Of a stretch of 41,110 nucleotides of DNA, positions 5,535 through 41,110 are shown in pieces. The first letter of the stretch is position 1, and each line of letters starts with the position of its first letter. The notes under the pieces are model-generated. The model saw only the letters and a list, made by a program, of their open reading frames with translations. It ran no database searches and had not been told where the DNA came from. The DNA is from a virus: positions 1-41,110 of IMG/VR virus record IMGVR_UViG_3300009702_000007, one strand, 5' to 3'. The position numbers were made by a program, and so were the translations under genes.

Positions 5535-5584
5535 CGGTGAGCGATCTATGCGGGTACTAACGCGGTGAGCGATCTATGCGGGTA
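5535..5584 (+). repeat. Two direct copies of a 22-bp element (candidate integrase arm-type sites)
   Basis: CGGTGAGCGATCTATGCGGGTA occurs at 5535-5556 and 5563-5584, about 70-120 nt from the attP core. Confidence 0.7.
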
Positions 5585-5654
5585 GGCCGCGGCGCAAATG
5601 CGGCACAACCGGCTGTTATAAGTCGACAAGGTTGTAATATTCTAGAGATCGAGA

Positions 5655-5704
<50 letters not shown>

Positions 5705-5814: not shown

Positions 5815-6843
5815 CTACTTCACCCTCCTGAGCCCCGGCCGGGGCAGCTTGGCGATTGCCGTTTCGTAGTTGTCGAGGCCGAGCTGCGCATAGACGCGCT
5901 CGACCATGCGAGTTGTGTTGCCCATGAGCCGCGCGACGACGAGCAGCTCCTCGCCGGCCTGGGCGAGCCAGCTGGCGAACGTACGGCGCAGGTCGTTGCT
6001 CGTCACCCGGGCCACGCCGGCGGCCTTGCAGAACCGCTCGAGGTCGCGTGTCGAGTTGCGCCAGGGGCCGACCACGAGGCCGTCTGTGCGAGGCGCACGC
6101 TCGAGCATCTCGGCGAGCTCGTCGGCGAGGGGCACGACGCGATCGCGGCGCTGGCGTTTCGTTCCCCGGATTCGGACGTGGCCGTCGTGGCCGTCGTGCA
6201 CGTCTTGCCAGTGCAGTCGCTCGGCCTCGCTTTTGTTGCAGCTGGCGAGGGCGTGCAGCGCGCACCATGTTTGCCGGCGCCACACGAGTGCGGCGCCGTC
6301 GCCGGCGTGCGTGGTCTCGAGGGCCTCGAGCAGCTTGTCGAACTGCGCACGCGTGAGCCAGGTCTCGCGCGGCTTGTAGTCGTTTTTGATCGCCGGAACG
6401 ATCGCCGGCGAGCAGCTGTGCGCCTTGAGCGTGCCGCGGAGCACCATGAGCTCTTTATGGATCGTGTTGGTCTTGGCACCCTCGCCCAGCCGCTGGGCGA
6501 CGTAGGCGTCGACCTGGGCCCGGTCTAGACCTTCGAGCGCCGCGGCGCGACCGAGCACGCGCTGCAGGTGGCCGGCCTTCGTGCGGTAGCTGTCGCGCGT
6601 GCCCTCGGCGAGCGTCGCACACGCCACGTTGACGTAGTGCGAGACGGCGACGTCTATCCGCGTTGCGGCGGCTTTGTCCGCGGCTGGGTCAATGGCAAGA
6701 CGCTCGAGCTTGCGGAGCTTCGCTTTGGCGACGTGGGCGCTCGTCGTACGGAGCGACGGCCGGCGCCGGCGCTGCTTGCCGTCTGGCCCGAGGACGTAGT
6801 AGTCGGCGTAGTAGATGCCGCCGCGTTTGTAGATCCGGGACAC
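5815..6843 (-). CDS. int: Tyrosine recombinase (phage integrase)
   Basis: 342 aa. N-terminal SAM-like region, catalytic-domain motifs (...NDLRRTFASWL..., ...LMGNTTRMVERVYAQL with the Tyr). GTG start preceded by AGGAG-6 nt. Adjacent to the tRNA-derived attP. Confidence 0.92.
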   Translation of the reverse strand: MSRIYKRGGIYYADYYVLGPDGKQRRRRPSLRTTSAHVAKAKLRKLERLAIDPAADKAAATRIDVAVSHYVNVACATLAEGTRDSYRTKAGHLQRVLGRAAALEGLDRAQVDAYVAQRLGEGAKTNTIHKELMVLRGTLKAHSCSPAIVPAIKNDYKPRETWLTRAQFDKLLEALETTHAGDGAALVWRRQTWCALHALASCNKSEAERLHWQDVHDGHDGHVRIRGTKRQRRDRVVPLADELAEMLERAPRTDGLVVGPWRNSTRDLERFCKAAGVARVTSNDLRRTFASWLAQAGEELLVVARLMGNTTRMVERVYAQLGLDNYETAIAKLPRPGLRRVK

Positions 6844-11731: not shown

Positions 11732-12447
11732 GCCTTCGGCCGGTTGAATCGTCGGTAACCTTCGCCGCGATGCTGCTCGGCCAGGGCGGCGAGCTCGGCC
11801 TTGTCAACGCCGGCGCGCGCGGCGAGCTCGGCAACGACTGGTTTCCAGCTCACGCGACCAGCGACTGGTTTCCAGCTCACGCGTCCGTCGGCGAATTGAA
11901 TCCCGGCCGCGTCGCCGATGTGCGTGCACAGCTGATTCTTGAGCAGCGCCTCGCGCTCGGCGATCGCCACCTTGTCAGCGAGCACCTGGCGCAGCGCGTC
12001 GGCAAGCTCGAGCGTCTCTGCCGTCGACGCCAGGTACACGTCGCGTTTGAATTCGTGCTTGCGCGCGAGGTACTCGGTGTACGCCGTCGAGCCGTCGATG
12101 TCGGGCGGCTCGCGCTTTTCGACATACTCGTGCCAGAAAAACTCGACCGCCGGCACGAGTACGCGCTCGAAATGCAGGTCGCGCTCGAGCGTGTATTCGC
12201 GATAGTCGTAGCCGCCGATCAGCGCCGCGAGATCCCATCTGCCCAGGTCGTAGCCCCACATGTACCAGGCGCATTGGATGCGATACTCCTGGGGCACCTC
12301 GTCGCTGCCGTCGTCGCCCCAGCGGTGCGCCGAGTGGTGGCCGACCGTCTTGATCTCCACGCCGTGGCTGCCCGGCACGATGCCGTCTGGCGTCATGCGC
12401 GCCCATGGATGCTCGGGGTGGTAGTCGGGCTGCGACGACCACAGCAC
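11716..12447 (-). CDS. YqaJ/lambda-Exo-type PD-(D/E)xK exonuclease, part downstream of an in-frame TAG
   Basis: RMTPDGIV, VEIKT and PQEYRIQCAWYMW motifs. The same reading frame stays open and coding-like from 12558 (GELVGELPPFEGNERTKWGKLLEDPIR...). The first canonical restart is GTG 12447. Confidence 0.8.
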   Translation of the reverse strand: MLWSSQPDYHPEHPWARMTPDGIVPGSHGVEIKTVGHHSAHRWGDDGSDEVPQEYRIQCAWYMWGYDLGRWDLAALIGGYDYREYTLERDLHFERVLVPAVEFFWHEYVEKREPPDIDGSTAYTEYLARKHEFKRDVYLASTAETLELADALRQVLADKVAIAEREALLKNQLCTHIGDAAGIQFADGRVSWKPVAGRVSWKPVVAELAARAGVDKAELAALAEQHRGEGYRRFNRPKAWGSK

Positions 12448-12558: not shown

Positions 12559-12855
12559 CTACACCTGGATTGGCGGGCAGTACGGGTGGTCGCCGACCGC
12601 GGCCGCGGCTTGGCTGCCACCGATGCCGCGCCATTCGATCTCGGGCTCGGGCGCCGCCAGCAGTTCGCAGTCCTCGAGCAGCACCCGGAGCGAGCGCTTG
12701 GAGCGGCGCCCGTTGGGCAGTAGCACCTGGACCTTGCCGGCGGCGTAGTCGACGCCCAGGACCTCGACCGCGGCGCTCTCGACGGGCCGACCGTGCCGGG
12801 CCAGCTGTCTGGCCTGCTTGCGGTGCAGGTAACGCTGTCCGACGGCGAGCGTCAC
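12559..12855 (-). CDS. N-terminal fragment of the same exonuclease (small N-terminal domain plus the YqaJ entry motif), ending at an in-frame TAG
   Basis: GTGA overlap with the upstream RHH gene. EIEWRGIGGSQAAAAVGDHPY resembles the YqaJ N-terminal motif. The TAG at 12559-12561 is in frame with 11716..12558. Confidence 0.75.
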   Translation of the reverse strand: MTLAVGQRYLHRKQARQLARHGRPVESAAVEVLGVDYAAGKVQVLLPNGRRSKRSLRVLLEDCELLAAPEPEIEWRGIGGSQAAAAVGDHPYCPPIQV

Positions 12856-13190: not shown

Positions 13191-13586
13191 CTACTTGGCC
13201 CCCATGCGCTCGGCGTCAGACGTCTGGCGTCCGGCGTCGAGCATCGTCACCGTCTGCCGGTCGCGCTCCTGGGCCGCCTCGCAGTCCACGCACCGCGGCG
13301 GCGCCTCGGGGTGGTCGAGCTCCCAGCGCGCGCCGCACAGCTTGCACCGGATGGCGCGAACCTTGCCGGCGTCGCGCGCCTGGTCGCCGAGCTGCTCGTC
13401 GACGTACCAGCGCAGCTCGACCTCTAGGGCGCCGGCGCATAGCCGGAGCTGCTCGGCCATCGCGTACAGCCGCGTCATGATGTCGCGGGACTTGGTGCCC
13501 GCGGCGCGGCGCATCAGGTTATCGGCCTGCTCGCGCCATCGGGTTTGCAGGTTGGGGGCGGTCGGGTTGGGATTGGTGCGACTCAC
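13191..13586 (-). CDS. First gene of the leftward early operon, zinc-ribbon protein
   Basis: In-frame GTG at 13586 is the last triplet of the conserved 19-mer of the left promoter module. CKLCGARW...PPRCVDC. The track start (TTG 13616) lies inside the predicted promoter. Confidence 0.65.
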   Translation of the reverse strand: MSRTNPNPTAPNLQTRWREQADNLMRRAAGTKSRDIMTRLYAMAEQLRLCAGALEVELRWYVDEQLGDQARDAGKVRAIRCKLCGARWELDHPEAPPRCVDCEAAQERDRQTVTMLDAGRQTSDAERMGAK

Positions 13587-13648
13587 AAAGCAAACTTGTA
13601 CAGGGCGGGCCAGCAAGGGTCAATAGTAAGACAGGTTAAACTTGTAAG
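13584..13648 (-). promoter_or_regulatory. Leftward early promoter/operator module (PL-like)
   Basis: On the minus strand the order is CTTACAAGTTTAACCTGTC, 6 nt, TTGACC, 17 nt, TACAAG, 8 nt, GTG. It aligns without gaps to 14292-14356. Confidence 0.6.
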
Positions 13649-13776
13649 TTGCCACGGCGCCTCAACTCCCGCACGAGCACCTCGAGCAGCCGCAGCTGGC
13701 GCTCATAGTAATGCGGCCGAAGCCGGCGAAGTGCCCGACCGACGGCCGCCCATTTGTCCTTTTCGCTTTTCTCCAC
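13636..13776 (-). CDS. Possible 46-aa basic protein between the repressor gene and PL
   Basis: GTG..TAA ORF not in the track (under 60 aa): VEKSEKDKWAAVGRALRRLRPHYYERQLRLLEVLVRELRRRGNLQV. Natural-looking composition, moderate third-position GC. Alternative GTG at 13797. Confidence 0.35.
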   Translation of the reverse strand: MEKSEKDKWAAVGRALRRLRPHYYERQLRLLEVLVRELRRRGNLQV

Positions 13777-13852
13777 GCGAGGCGAATCAGCACACACCGT
13801 GCCGGGATCTGCCTGCGCTATCTGAAGTAGTTAGCGATGGGGGTCGGCCCGA

Positions 13853-13881
13853 GGGGTGTTCCAGGGGTGTTCCACGTTCCA
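13853..13881 (+). repeat. Tandem 11-bp repeats GGGGTGTTCCA x2 plus a partial copy
   Basis: Copies at 13853-13863 and 13864-13874, partial CGTTCCA at 13875-13881, and a related GGGTGTTC at 13905-13912. Located just 3' of the repressor gene. Confidence 0.7.
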
Positions 13882-13912
13882 GGCCAGAATGTCCACCCGC
13901 TCGAGGGTGTTC

Positions 13913-14278
13913 TCACTCGTCGAGTTCGAGGAGTTCGAGTTGGCGCAAGAATCGCTCGAGAGATTGAACACGCAGCCTGCGACCCGCCGCGAGCCAGCGC
14001 CGTTCAAGCGCGTCCGTGATTCCGGCGGCGGGCAACGGGATACCCAAAGCAGCGGCAATCGCAGGGACGAGCTTGCTTTGCTTCCCTGTACCCGTCTCAA
14101 GCCAGCTGATCGTCGCCTGGGTGGTGCCGAGCAGGTCGGCCAGGGCGGTCTGCGAAAGATCCCGCGCCTCGCGGGCTGTCTTCATCAGCTCGCGCCACTC
14201 TGCTGTCGTCGGGATCTCACCTTCGGTGTTCTCGATGAGCTGCCGGAGTTCGCGGCGCGTCAGCGTCACGGACTGCAT
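13913..14278 (-). CDS. XRE-family HTH repressor (CI-like), no S24 peptidase domain
   Basis: MKTAREARDLSQTALADLLGTTQATISWLETGTGKQS is a classical HTH_3. ATG at 14278. The 30 aa upstream in the track lie inside the operator region. Divergent from the Cro-like gene. Confidence 0.85.
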   Translation of the reverse strand: MQSVTLTRRELRQLIENTEGEIPTTAEWRELMKTAREARDLSQTALADLLGTTQATISWLETGTGKQSKLVPAIAAALGIPLPAAGITDALERRWLAAGRRLRVQSLERFLRQLELLELDE

Positions 14279-14291
14279 GGGAACATAGTCG

Positions 14292-14356
14292 CTTACGAGT
14301 TTCGTCTGTTTCGTGGTTGCAGAGTTTCCGGCAGATGTGTACAAGTTTGGTCTGTG
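14292..14356 (+). promoter_or_regulatory. Rightward early promoter/operator module (PR-like)
   Basis: The order is CTTACGAGTTTCGTCTGTT, 6 nt, TTGCAG, 17 nt, TACAAG, 8 nt, GTG. It is a mirror copy of 13584-13648. Confidence 0.6.
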
Positions 14357-14596
14357 GATGGCACCCAACTAGGCGCCCGCCTTGCCAAGCTGCGCGATAG
14401 GCGGGGCCTTACGCAGCAGCAACTTGCCGACCATCTCGCTGTGACGCAGCAAACGGTGAGCGGTTGGGAGAGTGGTGGCAGCACCCCCCGCATGAGGCGA
14501 CTCAAGACGCTCGCGGCGGTGCTCGACGTTCCGTTCGCTGAACTGGTTTCCCTCATAGAGCAAGACGAGGCGCAAGACGAGGCGCGCGCAGGGTAG
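14354..14596 (+). CDS. Cro-like XRE-family HTH protein
   Basis: LGARLAKLRDRRGLTQQQLADHLAVTQQTVSGWESGGSTP is an HTH_3. In-frame GTG at 14354. The rest of track ORF 13856..14596 is antisense to the repressor gene. Confidence 0.8.
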   Translation: MDGTQLGARLAKLRDRRGLTQQQLADHLAVTQQTVSGWESGGSTPRMRRLKTLAAVLDVPFAELVSLIEQDEAQDEARAG

Positions 14597-18341: not shown

Positions 18342-18934
18342 CATTGGAAACACGAAGCAAACAAGCTCCTCCGGGTCGCAGGCTGGCCCTCGTCACCGTC
18401 ACCGGCATTGTGGCGCTCACGCTGGCTCTGCAGAGCGGCGGCCGCGTCGAGGCATCACCGCGGTATCAGCGCGCGCTCGTGACTCAGTTTGCGAGCAAGA
18501 CGATCGGCGATCCGTTGCGACGAACACCGACGTATGACAAGCAGGCCGGCCAGTGGTTCGCCTGTCTCAAGGATGGCCGCAAACGTAGGATGAGCCCGTA
18601 CGTTTGGGGCATCGCCGCTCGGCAGGGGGAACTGCCGTGCGGCGCGCTCGTCGAACTGTGCCGCGAGTTCAAAGGGCGGTCGCTCTGTGTGGTCGCGCCC
18701 GTCGTCGATCGCGGCCCCTATCATGCGGTGCGCGCGAGCTGTCCGCGGCCGCCGCGGCACAGCCAGGTTTGCTGGAGTCGCGGCAAGACCATGTTGCGGC
18801 AGCGGCCGGGGTGGCGCTGGGAAACCAAGTTTGACCTGTTGCCGCGCGTCGCATGGGCGATCCGGGTCCTCGGCAAGGGGATGGTCTGGTGGCGTGTCGT
18901 GTGGAGCCCGCTGCAGCGAAGGCGCGACCTGTGA
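18338..18934 (+). CDS. Secreted or membrane-anchored RlpA-like double-psi beta-barrel (DPBB) protein
   Basis: Signal anchor RRLALVTVTGIVALTLALQSG. ELPCGALVELC...GRSLCVVAPVVDRGPY...KFDLLPRVAWAI resembles RlpA/DPBB_1. GGGAGA lies before the GTG. Confidence 0.65.
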   Translation: MTLETRSKQAPPGRRLALVTVTGIVALTLALQSGGRVEASPRYQRALVTQFASKTIGDPLRRTPTYDKQAGQWFACLKDGRKRRMSPYVWGIAARQGELPCGALVELCREFKGRSLCVVAPVVDRGPYHAVRASCPRPPRHSQVCWSRGKTMLRQRPGWRWETKFDLLPRVAWAIRVLGKGMVWWRVVWSPLQRRRDL

Positions 18935-21788: not shown

Positions 21789-21816
21789 TTGACGGGTCGT
21801 AATTCGTATGTATAAT
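21789..21816 (+). promoter_or_regulatory. Near-consensus sigma70-type promoter (late-operon promoter candidate)
   Basis: TTGACG (21789-21794), 16-nt spacer, TATAAT (21811-21816). Sits in the most AT-rich stretch of the window. An in-frame ATG lies at 21823. Confidence 0.6.
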
Positions 21817-21852
21817 AGAAGCATGACACGGACACAAACCACGGAGGACACG

Positions 21853-22164
21853 ATGACCACAGCGACGACGACAATCACTTCCGCCACCCCGACCAAACTC
21901 CGCAGCGGCAGCTGGGGTGCCAAGGTGCAGGATGCGAATCCGCAGCTCGGTCAGGTCGTGCGCATCACCACCAAGTCGGGCAAGTCGTGGCTCGCCACCG
22001 TGACGAGAGTCATCTGGAGCGGCAACGGCGTGGCCATCTGCGCTACGGCCTCGGCGAAACCCCGCCAGCAGCGCTCCTACTCGGTGGTGTACTGCGGCTA
22101 CCCCTGCCCCGTCACCGGGCTCAAATGCTGCGCGGCCAACGGTCAGTGCCATGATTGCCTATAA
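21853..22164 (+). CDS. Small protein with a beta-rich N-domain and a C-terminal Cys cluster, first gene after the strong promoter
   Basis: GGAGGA-5 nt-ATG at 21853. An in-frame ATG at 21823 could give a leaderless isoform. GSWGAKVQD...VVRITTKSGKSWLATVTRVIWSGNGVAICAT. C-terminus YCGYPCPVTGLKCCAANGQCHDCL. Confidence 0.7.
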   Translation: MTTATTTITSATPTKLRSGSWGAKVQDANPQLGQVVRITTKSGKSWLATVTRVIWSGNGVAICATASAKPRQQRSYSVVYCGYPCPVTGLKCCAANGQCHDCL

Positions 22165-40355: not shown

Positions 40356-41110
40356 ATGCGGCGCTACGGATTCGATGTGCGCGACGAGACCGTCTGCCTG
40401 TTTCCGTTCGACGAGGTCGCCGATACGGTATGGCCGGTAGACATGCTCGAACACAGCAAGGCCCTGCAGGGAGACGACGGCAACAGCATCTTTTTGCCGG
40501 CGATCGTCGAGGCCGAACGGGGGCGCGCGCGAGCGTTTGGCGACGCGACCATCGGCCAGGCTGCCGAGGAGGTCGCCGGATCGCTTCAGCTGCGACGCAA
40601 CTGCTCGATTCGTGCCGCGTTCAGGTACTCGATTGCCGATGCCAGCAACGGCGAGATCGCGACAGTGGTTCAGCGCGGCGCCGGCACGGGCAGTGATACT
40701 CAGCGCCGCCTGTACGGCCTCGAGGTCAAGCGTGTGAGCGCGACGAGCATAACGCTGCGCATGCGCTGGGACGATTACAACGGCTCGAGCTACGACGACA
40801 CGGTCGTCGAAAGCGACTCGCTCCCCTACACGGGCGACGAGGTTGTCGTCGTTGCCGTGCGCGAGTGGGTGAGTCAGAGCCTTGCCTACGTGTACTTCTA
40901 CGTCGGCGGCGAGCTGGCGAGCGGCCCACACACCGAGACCGCGGCGTTTATCCGCGAGGGTTCGGGTGGTCCGCTGCTTGTCGGCTCTATGGGAATCCTC
41001 GAGTCGCGATACTGGCCGGACAACAGCTATATCGCCGAGATTGCCATCGACGGCGACGCCATCAGCGCCGAGGAGGTGCGCCAGGAATATCGGCGCATGC
41101 TGGTGCACCA
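40356..41110 (+). CDS. N-terminal part of the junction-spanning distal tail adhesin: LamG (Laminin_G_3-type) lectin-fold domain
   Basis: ATG at 40356 with no stop before the window end. Missing from the track because it lacks a stop. FPFDE...RAFGDA...LRRNCSIRAAFRY...VVVVAVREW...YVYFYVGGELAS...YIAEIAIDGDAISAEEVRQEY is a textbook LamG_3 pattern. Continues at position 2 (652 aa in total on the circle). Confidence 0.8.
   Translation, partial: MRRYGFDVRDETVCLFPFDEVADTVWPVDMLEHSKALQGDDGNSIFLPAIVEAERGRARAFGDATIGQAAEEVAGSLQLRRNCSIRAAFRYSIADASNGEIATVVQRGAGTGSDTQRRLYGLEVKRVSATSITLRMRWDDYNGSSYDDTVVESDSLPYTGDEVVVVAVREWVSQSLAYVYFYVGGELASGPHTETAAFIREGSGGPLLVGSMGILESRYWPDNSYIAEIAIDGDAISAEEVRQEYRRMLVH
40988..41110 (+). 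repeat. Right copy of the exact 123-bp terminal direct repeat
   Basis: Identical to 1-123. Confidence 0.95.

Follow-up and report, generated by a model that had tools for sequence, protein, structure and literature searches.

The viral DNA analysed here, 41,110 nucleotides of the IMG/VR record IMGVR_UViG_3300009702_000007 (hereafter the window, meaning the whole stretch at its full length), contains a phage immunity region in which two mirror-image promoter/operator modules bracket a repressor gene. The gene order is lambda-like: int...exo...gene 1, PL/OL, orf53, rep, PR/OR, cro, replication genes. The repressor gene, rep (13913..14278, minus strand), encodes 121 amino acids, and the cro-like gene (14354..14596, plus strand) encodes 80 amino acids from a GTG start. 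The two genes are divergent, and their products both match the Pfam helix-turn-helix (HTH) family HTH_3. The first leftward gene (13191..13586, minus strand), whose GTG start is used by the ENA, Logan and JGI gene calls alike, encodes a protein of 131 amino acids with a CxxC...CxxC motif and no known family. Between rep and the left module lies a small open reading frame (ORF), orf53 (13636..13797, minus strand; 53 amino acids), with a coding-like base composition. An earlier interpretation made from the letters alone (the sequence-only reading) had likened the arrangement to lambda OL/OR. This likeness holds in the gene content as well: an HTH_3 repressor is bracketed by the modules, the cro-like HTH_3 gene diverges from it, and the leftward genes include recombination genes and an integrase. 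The same reading missed orf53, a conserved small gene.

The right module (PR/OR-like; 14292..14356, plus strand) and the left module (PL/OL-like; 13584..13648, minus strand), its mirror image, were compared by ungapped alignment of the reverse complement of 13584-13648 with 14292-14356. Every element listed in the sequence-only reading, and their order, was reproduced by reading the sequence and by this alignment. Each module consists of a distal 19-mer (CTTACAAGTTTAACCTGTC / CTTACGAGTTTCGTCTGTT, identical at 14 of 19 positions), 6 nt, a -35-like hexamer, a 17-nt spacer, TACAAG within a proximal 19-mer (TGTACAAGTTTGCTTTGTG / TGTACAAGTTTGGTCTGTG, identical at 17 of 19 positions), 8 nt and a GTG, at 13586 on the minus strand and at 14354 on the plus strand. 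The hexamers of the putative PR are TTGCAG (14317..14322, plus strand) and TACAAG (14340..14345, plus strand), with CAAGTT at 14342-14347 as an alternative reading of the -10 element; those of the putative PL are TTGACC (13618..13623) and TACAAG (13595..13600), both on the minus strand. Within the 41 kb, the 15-mer ACRAGTTTNNYYTGT is matched perfectly at four places and no more, all of them flanking rep, so that the whole-genome motif search confines it to these four sites. The distal right operator ACGAGTTTCGTCTGT (14295..14309, plus strand) is the most deviant copy, with ACG for ACA. The proximal right operator ACAAGTTTGGTCTGT (14341..14355, plus strand) lies over the -10 element and the predicted start site, and its final two bases are the first two of the cro GTG. 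The distal left operator ACAAGTTTAACCTGT (13631..13645, minus strand), within which the TAA stop of orf53 lies, is the most palindromic copy and also matches on the plus strand with two mismatches. The proximal left operator ACAAGTTTGCTTTGT (13585..13599, minus strand) overlaps the -10 element and the first two bases of the GTG of the first leftward gene. In each module the two sites are spaced 46 nt apart. Neither control region holds a third ACA-N9-TGT or a near copy of one; there are two sites per side and not three.

The sequence-only reading had aligned the modules without gaps over 65 bp; taken as a whole, this alignment is not statistically special. The modules are identical at 39 of 65 positions, and this GC-rich, codon-biased sequence contains a dozen further inverted pairs of 65 nt within 2 kb that score 39-40 of 65. 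If the alignment were the whole of the evidence, the modules could be a chance resemblance or the functionless residue of a duplication. However, an unbiased search with one of the 15-mers recovers the other three at 12-13 of 15 positions, and a first-order Markov null gives 0.24 such matches per window, with a maximum of two in 200 simulations. The four exact copies are AT-rich in a genome of 66% GC, occur only around rep, and keep an identical spacing and register to two start codons; moreover, the same design is found in the closest relative (locus L142, below), with a repressor only 56% identical and a different operator word. We consider chance or residue effectively refuted: the four sites and their 46-nt spacing are significant, and the 65-nt alignment as a whole is not.

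An independent repeat search recovers the proximal arms as a 28-nt inverted repeat of 82% identity (13575-13602 / 14338-14365), extending 9 nt beyond the GTGs. The similarity past the start codons covers 13575-13583 and 14357-14365 (GTGAGTCGCACC vs GTGGATGGCACC), and such similarity is also present in L142 (1251-1256 / 1960-1965, ATGGCCAA vs ATGCCGAA). The similarity may stem either from gene conversion between the two modules or from the part that is transcribed or translated first. A copy of the proximal right site identical at 12 of 15 positions (CCAAGTTTGACCTGT) lies inside a gene for 196 amino acids (18825-18839, plus strand) and may be due to chance or be an extra site.

The repressor resembles that of phage 434 in its DNA-binding domain, which is homologous to it. 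The best match of Rep in the PDB is the 434 repressor (1per; E 1.9e-5; GTTQATISWLETG vs GTTQQSIEQLENG), and a Rep profile reaches the 434 repressor at E 3.4e-10. The AlphaFold model of Rep (AF2; predicted local distance difference test, pLDDT, 94.5) has seven helices: an N-terminal helix, a five-helix 434-like HTH core and two C-terminal helices (residues 90-105 and 107-119). Foldseek searches with Rep matched the HTH core only, to P22 c2, the 434 repressor and Cro, restriction-modification C proteins and HipB, and superposed Rep on 1pra, 2or1 and 3jxb with a root-mean-square deviation of 1.1-2.1 Å over 53-57 residues. In both sequence and fold, the Rep HTH is closest to the N-terminal domains of 434 repressor and P22 c2. 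The recognition helices of Cro and Rep are alike (TQQTVS and TQATIS, respectively). An S24 (LexA-like) domain was not found in Rep: Pfam reports HTH families only, and the AF2 model contains no beta domain. RecA-stimulated self-cleavage of Rep is therefore unlikely.

The anatomy of the 15-mer fits a protein of this kind. It contains the dyad ACA-N9-TGT and can be divided into ACAAG, five variable bases and yyTGT (5+5+5), with a strong left half, a weaker right half (ACAGr on the opposite strand) and a conserved TTT beside the strong half. ACAAG is the conserved half-site word of 434 operators. The operators of 434 are 14 bp long, with the outer 4+4 bases conserved and contacted and the centre variable (PMC1636474). 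Conserved outer bases and a variable centre are features of the present sites too, whereas their length is 15 bp (ACAAG-N5-yyTGT, as against ACAA...TTGT), only ACA...TGT is common to both, and the right half is degenerate. Judged by their sequence, the operators are asymmetric pseudo-palindromes rather than simple direct repeats. The sequence-only reading described directly repeated and only weakly palindromic sites; to see them as mere direct repeats is at odds with the dyad, the 5+5+5 structure and the palindromes of related phages.

For comparison with these phages, we ran a full HMMER search with the repressor against 1.8 billion representative proteins. The family comprises 329 matches at E up to 0.001, with 53 at E up to 1e-10, mostly 110-150 amino acids long and aligned to almost the entire repressor. 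We compared ten loci with Rep relatives (among them L142, L143, L145 and L147-L151). They share the layout cro, operators, rep, (small ORF), operators, leftward genes, and all ten have phage-specific repeats in the rep-cro intergenic region and a second set a few hundred bases beyond rep. The closest relative, L142, reproduces the geometry of the cassette in mirror orientation: a distal site, 7 nt, TTGAAC or TTGAAT, 18 or 17 nt, TATAAG within the proximal site, 8 nt and ATG, with the sites spaced 47 and 46 nt apart. Its operator word differs (ATAAGTTTnnnCGAT) and, as in the window, supplies with its last two bases the first two of the start codon. The operators of other relatives are palindromic with a 5-bp centre, as in ATAGG-N5-CCTAT, TACCGC-N5-GCGGTA and TAGTAG-N5-CTACTA. 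The operator word is distinct in each phage, as would be expected for immunity specificity. With the ACA-N9-TGT dyad and clear palindromes of the same geometry in relatives, binding by dimers of an HTH protein is the natural reading.

A different account of the repeated words is that they are chiefly promoter elements, TAyAAGTTT being an unusual extended -10 element or discriminator for the host polymerase or a phage-directed one, and the distal copies being tandem promoters. All four copies face the gene that they precede, and the window, L142, L147 and L150 all have a TAnAnGTT(T) core at the corresponding place despite their differing repressors. The distal right site of L142, read on its complement, even gives a plausible -10 element (TATAAC) for a rep promoter, whose -35 element overlaps that of PR. 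The distal copies, however, have no -35 partner at 16-18 nt, and the ACA...TGT dyad with its 5+5+5 structure matches the palindromes of relatives, which do not resemble -10 elements. Each phage's word tracks its own repressor, and Rep itself is 434-like. We regard this account as improbable, and favour operators that overlap promoters.

The promoters were scored with a sigma-70 position weight matrix (PWM). On the correct strands the best local matches are TTGACC-17-TACAAG for the putative PL (9.4 bits) and TTGCAG-17-TACAAG for the putative PR (5.3 bits), neither of which is strong. Both end their -10 hexamer 8 nt ahead of a GTG, which places the predicted start sites at or next to the start codons. 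The sequence-only reading had noted that neither gene has a Shine-Dalgarno (SD) motif, and pairing energies agree: anti-SD pairing reaches -5 kcal/mol or better in 72% of the genes of the window (median -6.45), as against +0.3 for the first leftward gene, -3.0 for cro and -0.7 for rep, among the weakest in the genome. Within the 75-bp rep-cro intergenic region, no in-frame start other than the GTG at 14354 lies upstream of the HTH and keeps it whole, and a homologue starts three residues ahead of the same motif.

The position of these promoters is a property of the family. For each cro-like gene and each first leftward gene of the ten loci (n=20), we took the best promoter with a -10 element ending 5-9 nt ahead of the start codon. 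The score was at least 3.2 in 18 of the 20 and at least 9.0 in 11. In the other 43 genes of the window the same score has a mean of -7.4 and a maximum of 6.0, and over all ATG/GTG triplets its 99th percentile is 4.9 and its 99.9th percentile 9.0. The start-abutting promoters have the form TTGnnn-17/18-TAnnnN. TTG is present at -35 in 17 of 18 such promoter-like sites in the window and its relatives, the exception being the cro gene of L148 (TAGAAA). Strong examples among the relatives are TTGAAA-17-TATGTT, TTGACT-17-TAGTTT and TTGACC-17-TAGCTT. The two cases that do not fit are leftward genes, that of L145, which has a leader with the SD sequence AAGGAGG, and that of L148, which probably has a leader. 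GTG is the start codon of six of the ten cro-like genes of the family; in L143 the choice of GTG is settled by an in-frame TGA lying two codons ahead of it. The relatives' rep genes mostly have leaders, and we do not claim a leaderless mRNA for rep. A possible leaderless rep promoter in the window, GACTAT at -12 to -7 of the ATG, was not adopted, as it has no -35 element and rep in the relatives mostly has a leader.

The leaderless early mRNAs predicted in the sequence-only reading thus gain strong comparative support from the start-abutting promoters, the L142 geometry and the sole usable start of cro. Judging by promoter geometry, the early mRNAs are most likely leaderless or nearly leaderless. 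The alternative is that the operators are real but the mRNAs have leaders, with a promoter within rep, or in or close to the distal site, from which transcription starts tens of bases upstream. The proximal operator would then be a roadblock downstream of the start, and translation would need no SD, initiating on an A/U-rich leader, helped for instance by ribosomal protein S1. The 20 nt ahead of each GTG are indeed A/T-rich relative to the genome, the predicted -10 hexamers are without the canonical final T, the score of PR is modest, and GTG is a poor leaderless start in proteobacteria (PMC8459731). Yet the 75-bp intergenic region offers no better promoter upstream, and the position of the -35 and -10 elements relative to the start codon is kept in 18 of 20 cases, several of them with strong hexamers. 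L145, a relative with a leader, carries an SD, and an operator over the -10 element and +1 is in the usual place for a repressor of this class. Leadered early mRNAs appear unlikely to us, though they deserve to be taken seriously.

Taken together, the cassettes are real, conserved and functional, and they are a variation on the lambda/434 switch rather than a new kind of system. We think it fairly probable that the whole is an immunity switch in which two mirror operator-promoter cassettes are bound by repressor and Cro and produce leaderless or near-leaderless early mRNAs. In such a switch, the two cassettes flanking rep and orf53 would each hold a sigma-70-type promoter (TTGnnn, 17 nt, TACAAG), with the proximal 15-bp operator covering the -10 element and the predicted start site and the second operator 46 bp upstream, just past the -35 element. 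Dimers of the 434-like HTH repressor would most likely bind the operators, and the cro-like protein, given its similar recognition helix, would bind the same operators with different preferences. Transcription would start at, or within ∼2 nt of, the G of the GTG, and the cro operon and the leftward recombination/integration operon would be expressed from leaderless or almost leaderless mRNAs. The repressor on the proximal site would block the polymerase directly. The distal right operator lies 16-30 nt upstream of the rep ATG; it probably also limits rep transcription, and may autoregulate it.

Several observations weigh against this interpretation. TACAAG ends in G where the sigma-70 -10 element almost always has T. 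The score of PR (5.3 bits, or 4.3 in the constrained scan) is only at about the 98-99th percentile of the null, and a stricter promoter scan returned no promoters in the switch region. The centre-to-centre spacing of 46 bp corresponds to ∼4.4 helical turns and places the two sites of a module off the same face of the DNA. All four sites are oriented towards their own gene, as would be expected equally of a directional element and of an asymmetric operator. Both start codons in the window are GTG and not the AUG expected of a leaderless mRNA. In E. coli, haloarchaea and Caulobacter, AUG is strongly favoured for leaderless initiation, and only 4.4% of the leaderless mRNAs of Caulobacter start with another codon; mycobacteria use GUG well, and short leaders are inhibitory too (PMC8459731). 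Since the host appears to be of proteobacterial type and AUG is preferred there, GTG leaderless starts would be inefficient unless the host differs. Either the host tolerates a 5'-GUG, or weak initiation is by design, or the 5' ends lie slightly upstream.

Compared with known switches, the region shares with lambda and 434 the divergent repressor and cro genes with a short common control region, the second operator set beyond the repressor gene at the leftward early promoter, and leftward recombination genes and int with replication genes on the right. It differs in having two operators per side, 46 bp apart, in place of three adjacent ones, and in a repressor of 121 amino acids that ends in a two-helix C-terminal domain and is without the RecA-cleavable S24 domain. 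In lambda only the cI mRNA, transcribed from PRM, is leaderless. Unlike in lambda, both early promoters here abut start codons, and these are GTG.

A closer likeness in promoter position is found in immB of the telomere phage PY54, which has a proteobacterial host and in which promoters lie directly upstream of the start codons; rapid amplification of cDNA ends (RACE) showed its cI and cro mRNAs to be leaderless (PMC4488713). PY54 uses AUG in place of GTG, its leaderless pair is cI and cro whereas the pair predicted here is cro and the first leftward gene, and its operator layout and proteins are unrelated to those described here beyond the HTH. The C proteins of restriction-modification systems are small HTH_3 proteins too, and the best matches in structure and sequence include C.BclI and C.AhdI. 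Such systems have paired operators (C-boxes) just ahead of a leaderless transcript (PMC2632904). Unlike in C-protein systems, no restriction or methylase genes are present here, the sites flank a phage repressor gene, and the words and their spacing differ.

The small gene orf53 suggests how such a switch might be released. Its product aligns with Rep residues 94-117 at 52% identity (BLASTP, E 2e-4), and an equivalent small ORF lies downstream of rep in nine of the ten relatives. In a profile-profile comparison, the small-ORF profile matches the C-terminal domain in proteins of the Rep family with 96.9% probability (E 1.9e-10). By this similarity, orf53 is a stand-alone paralogue of the C-terminal two-helix domain of Rep. 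A comparable pair is SinR/SinI of Bacillus subtilis (and SlrR). SinI is a copy of the two-helix oligomerisation domain of SinR, and by forming a heterodimer it removes the 434-like SinR from DNA (PMC3163267). In both cases the repressor combines an N-terminal 434-like HTH with a C-terminal helix pair, and a neighbouring small gene encodes a stand-alone copy of these helices. The alignment of SinR (1b0n, 5tn0) with the Rep profile, however, extends over the HTH only (positions 27-82), the C-terminal domains showing no sequence similarity; the small gene is downstream of the repressor gene here and upstream in the Sin system, and the setting here is a phage immunity region. By analogy we put forward the hypothesis that orf53, the paralogue of Rep's C-terminal helices, is a candidate phage-borne SinI-like anti-repressor, and a testable one.

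The gap between rep and orf53 contains a tandem duplication of GGGGTGTTCCA followed by GTTCC (13852-13880, plus strand), which creates GTTC-N7-GTTC at 13858-13872. GTTC-N7-GTTC is the form of the alphaproteobacterial LexA box (PMC3091678). We rejected a LexA box upstream of orf53: the motif is not enriched in the window (two found, 1.26 expected) and is a by-product of the 11-nt tandem repeat. At the equivalent place in L142, GGAAC-AAA-GTTCC overlaps a TTGACA-17-CAAAGT promoter.

If the 5' ends are as predicted, the region would be a compact natural two-operator version of the lambda switch in which repressor site, -10 element, start site and start codon coincide. GUG is regarded as nearly unusable for leaderless initiation outside mycobacteria. 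The region would then offer a system for studying GUG-initiated leaderless translation in non-actinobacterial hosts, and the tuning of Cro by weak initiation. A broader proposal, which we make tentatively and hold to be possible rather than probable, is that the phage represents an undescribed temperate family of proteobacteria-like hosts with start-abutting early promoters, in which about half of the leaderless mRNAs would begin with GUG and the switch would be released by a SinI-like mini-protein rather than by repressor cleavage.

In the window, L143, L147 and L149, the cro-like gene with its GTG start was overlooked by public gene callers, and in L145 they began it inside the HTH. They also missed the ORFs at the leftward promoter in L150, with a DnaJ-type CxxCxGxG zinc finger, and in L151. 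For immunity regions of this type, automatic annotation thus leaves systematic gaps. In L147 an ATG at the usual first-leftward start opens a mini-ORF of five codons (2679-2696), whose stop overlaps the GTG of the called gene (GTGA); this mini-ORF may be leaderless and coupled to the downstream gene.

A direct repeat of 123 bp at the two ends (1-123 and 40988-41110) shows that the assembly in the window is circularly closed, for a genome of ∼40,987 bp. The window is the complete, circular genome of an uncultured, orphan temperate phage with a lambda-like map. The leftward operon encodes a YqaJ/RecE-type exonuclease, a ParB-like protein and the integrase, the rightward side encodes a DnaD-like loader and DnaB, and the head genes are Mu-like. 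A nucleotide search with the immunity region against 50,697 phage records gave no matches, and scans of IMG/VR with Rep, DnaB and the exonuclease gave distant matches only. No close relative is present among the cultured phages, IMG/VR and the JGI metagenome collection as searched. When Rep, Cro and the first leftward protein were used in word-indexed protein searches, the only matches were the phage itself and one generic XRE protein (47% identity) in a non-phage context, and a scan of viral and metagenome contigs with the two-site DNA pattern gave only chance matches, located in tandem repeats or in AT-rich contigs. The phage is also represented by two other public assemblies, which are 99.95% identical to the window, and because their switch region is unchanged they provide no comparative information.

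The host is probably proteobacteria-like, as judged from the attachment site. The site (attP) probably lies at 5535-5704, where it is marked by a 51-nt 3' half of tRNA-Phe(GAA), including CCA; this half (5654-5704) follows closely downstream of the integrase gene (5815-6843, minus strand). In a genome scan that matched at least 120 genomes of several phyla, this half is identical in many Gamma- and Alphaproteobacteria, Desulfobacterota, Myxococcota and one metagenome-assembled genome (MAG) of Acidobacteria, and it is on this identity in many proteobacterial genomes that the host assignment is based. Actinobacteria were absent among the ∼80 matches listed of these at least 120, and no related prophage lies beside a tRNA gene in the matching genomes. 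Terminase and capsid matches in the phage records were too distant for naming a host, and neither tRNA genes nor Rfam families were found in the window. Two perfect 22-nt direct repeats (5535-5556 and 5563-5584) precede the tRNA-Phe half.

Ten of the 11 differences between the window and the other assemblies are A/T in the window and G/C in the others. The YqaJ/RecE-type exonuclease gene is broken in the window by an in-frame TAG (12559-12561, minus strand), which reads TGG (Trp) in the two other assemblies. The same gene contains a 27-nt tandem duplication of 93% identity (11832-11885 in plus-strand coordinates), giving the peptide repeat GRVSWKPV(A/V). Elsewhere in the window (21789-21855, plus strand), TTGACG-16-TATAAT forms a near-consensus promoter, and after it come a GGAGG-containing leader and an ATG at 21853. 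This shows that the host uses canonical promoters and SD sequences, and the promoter probably heads another operon. One of the variants between assemblies, at 21808, falls within its spacer.

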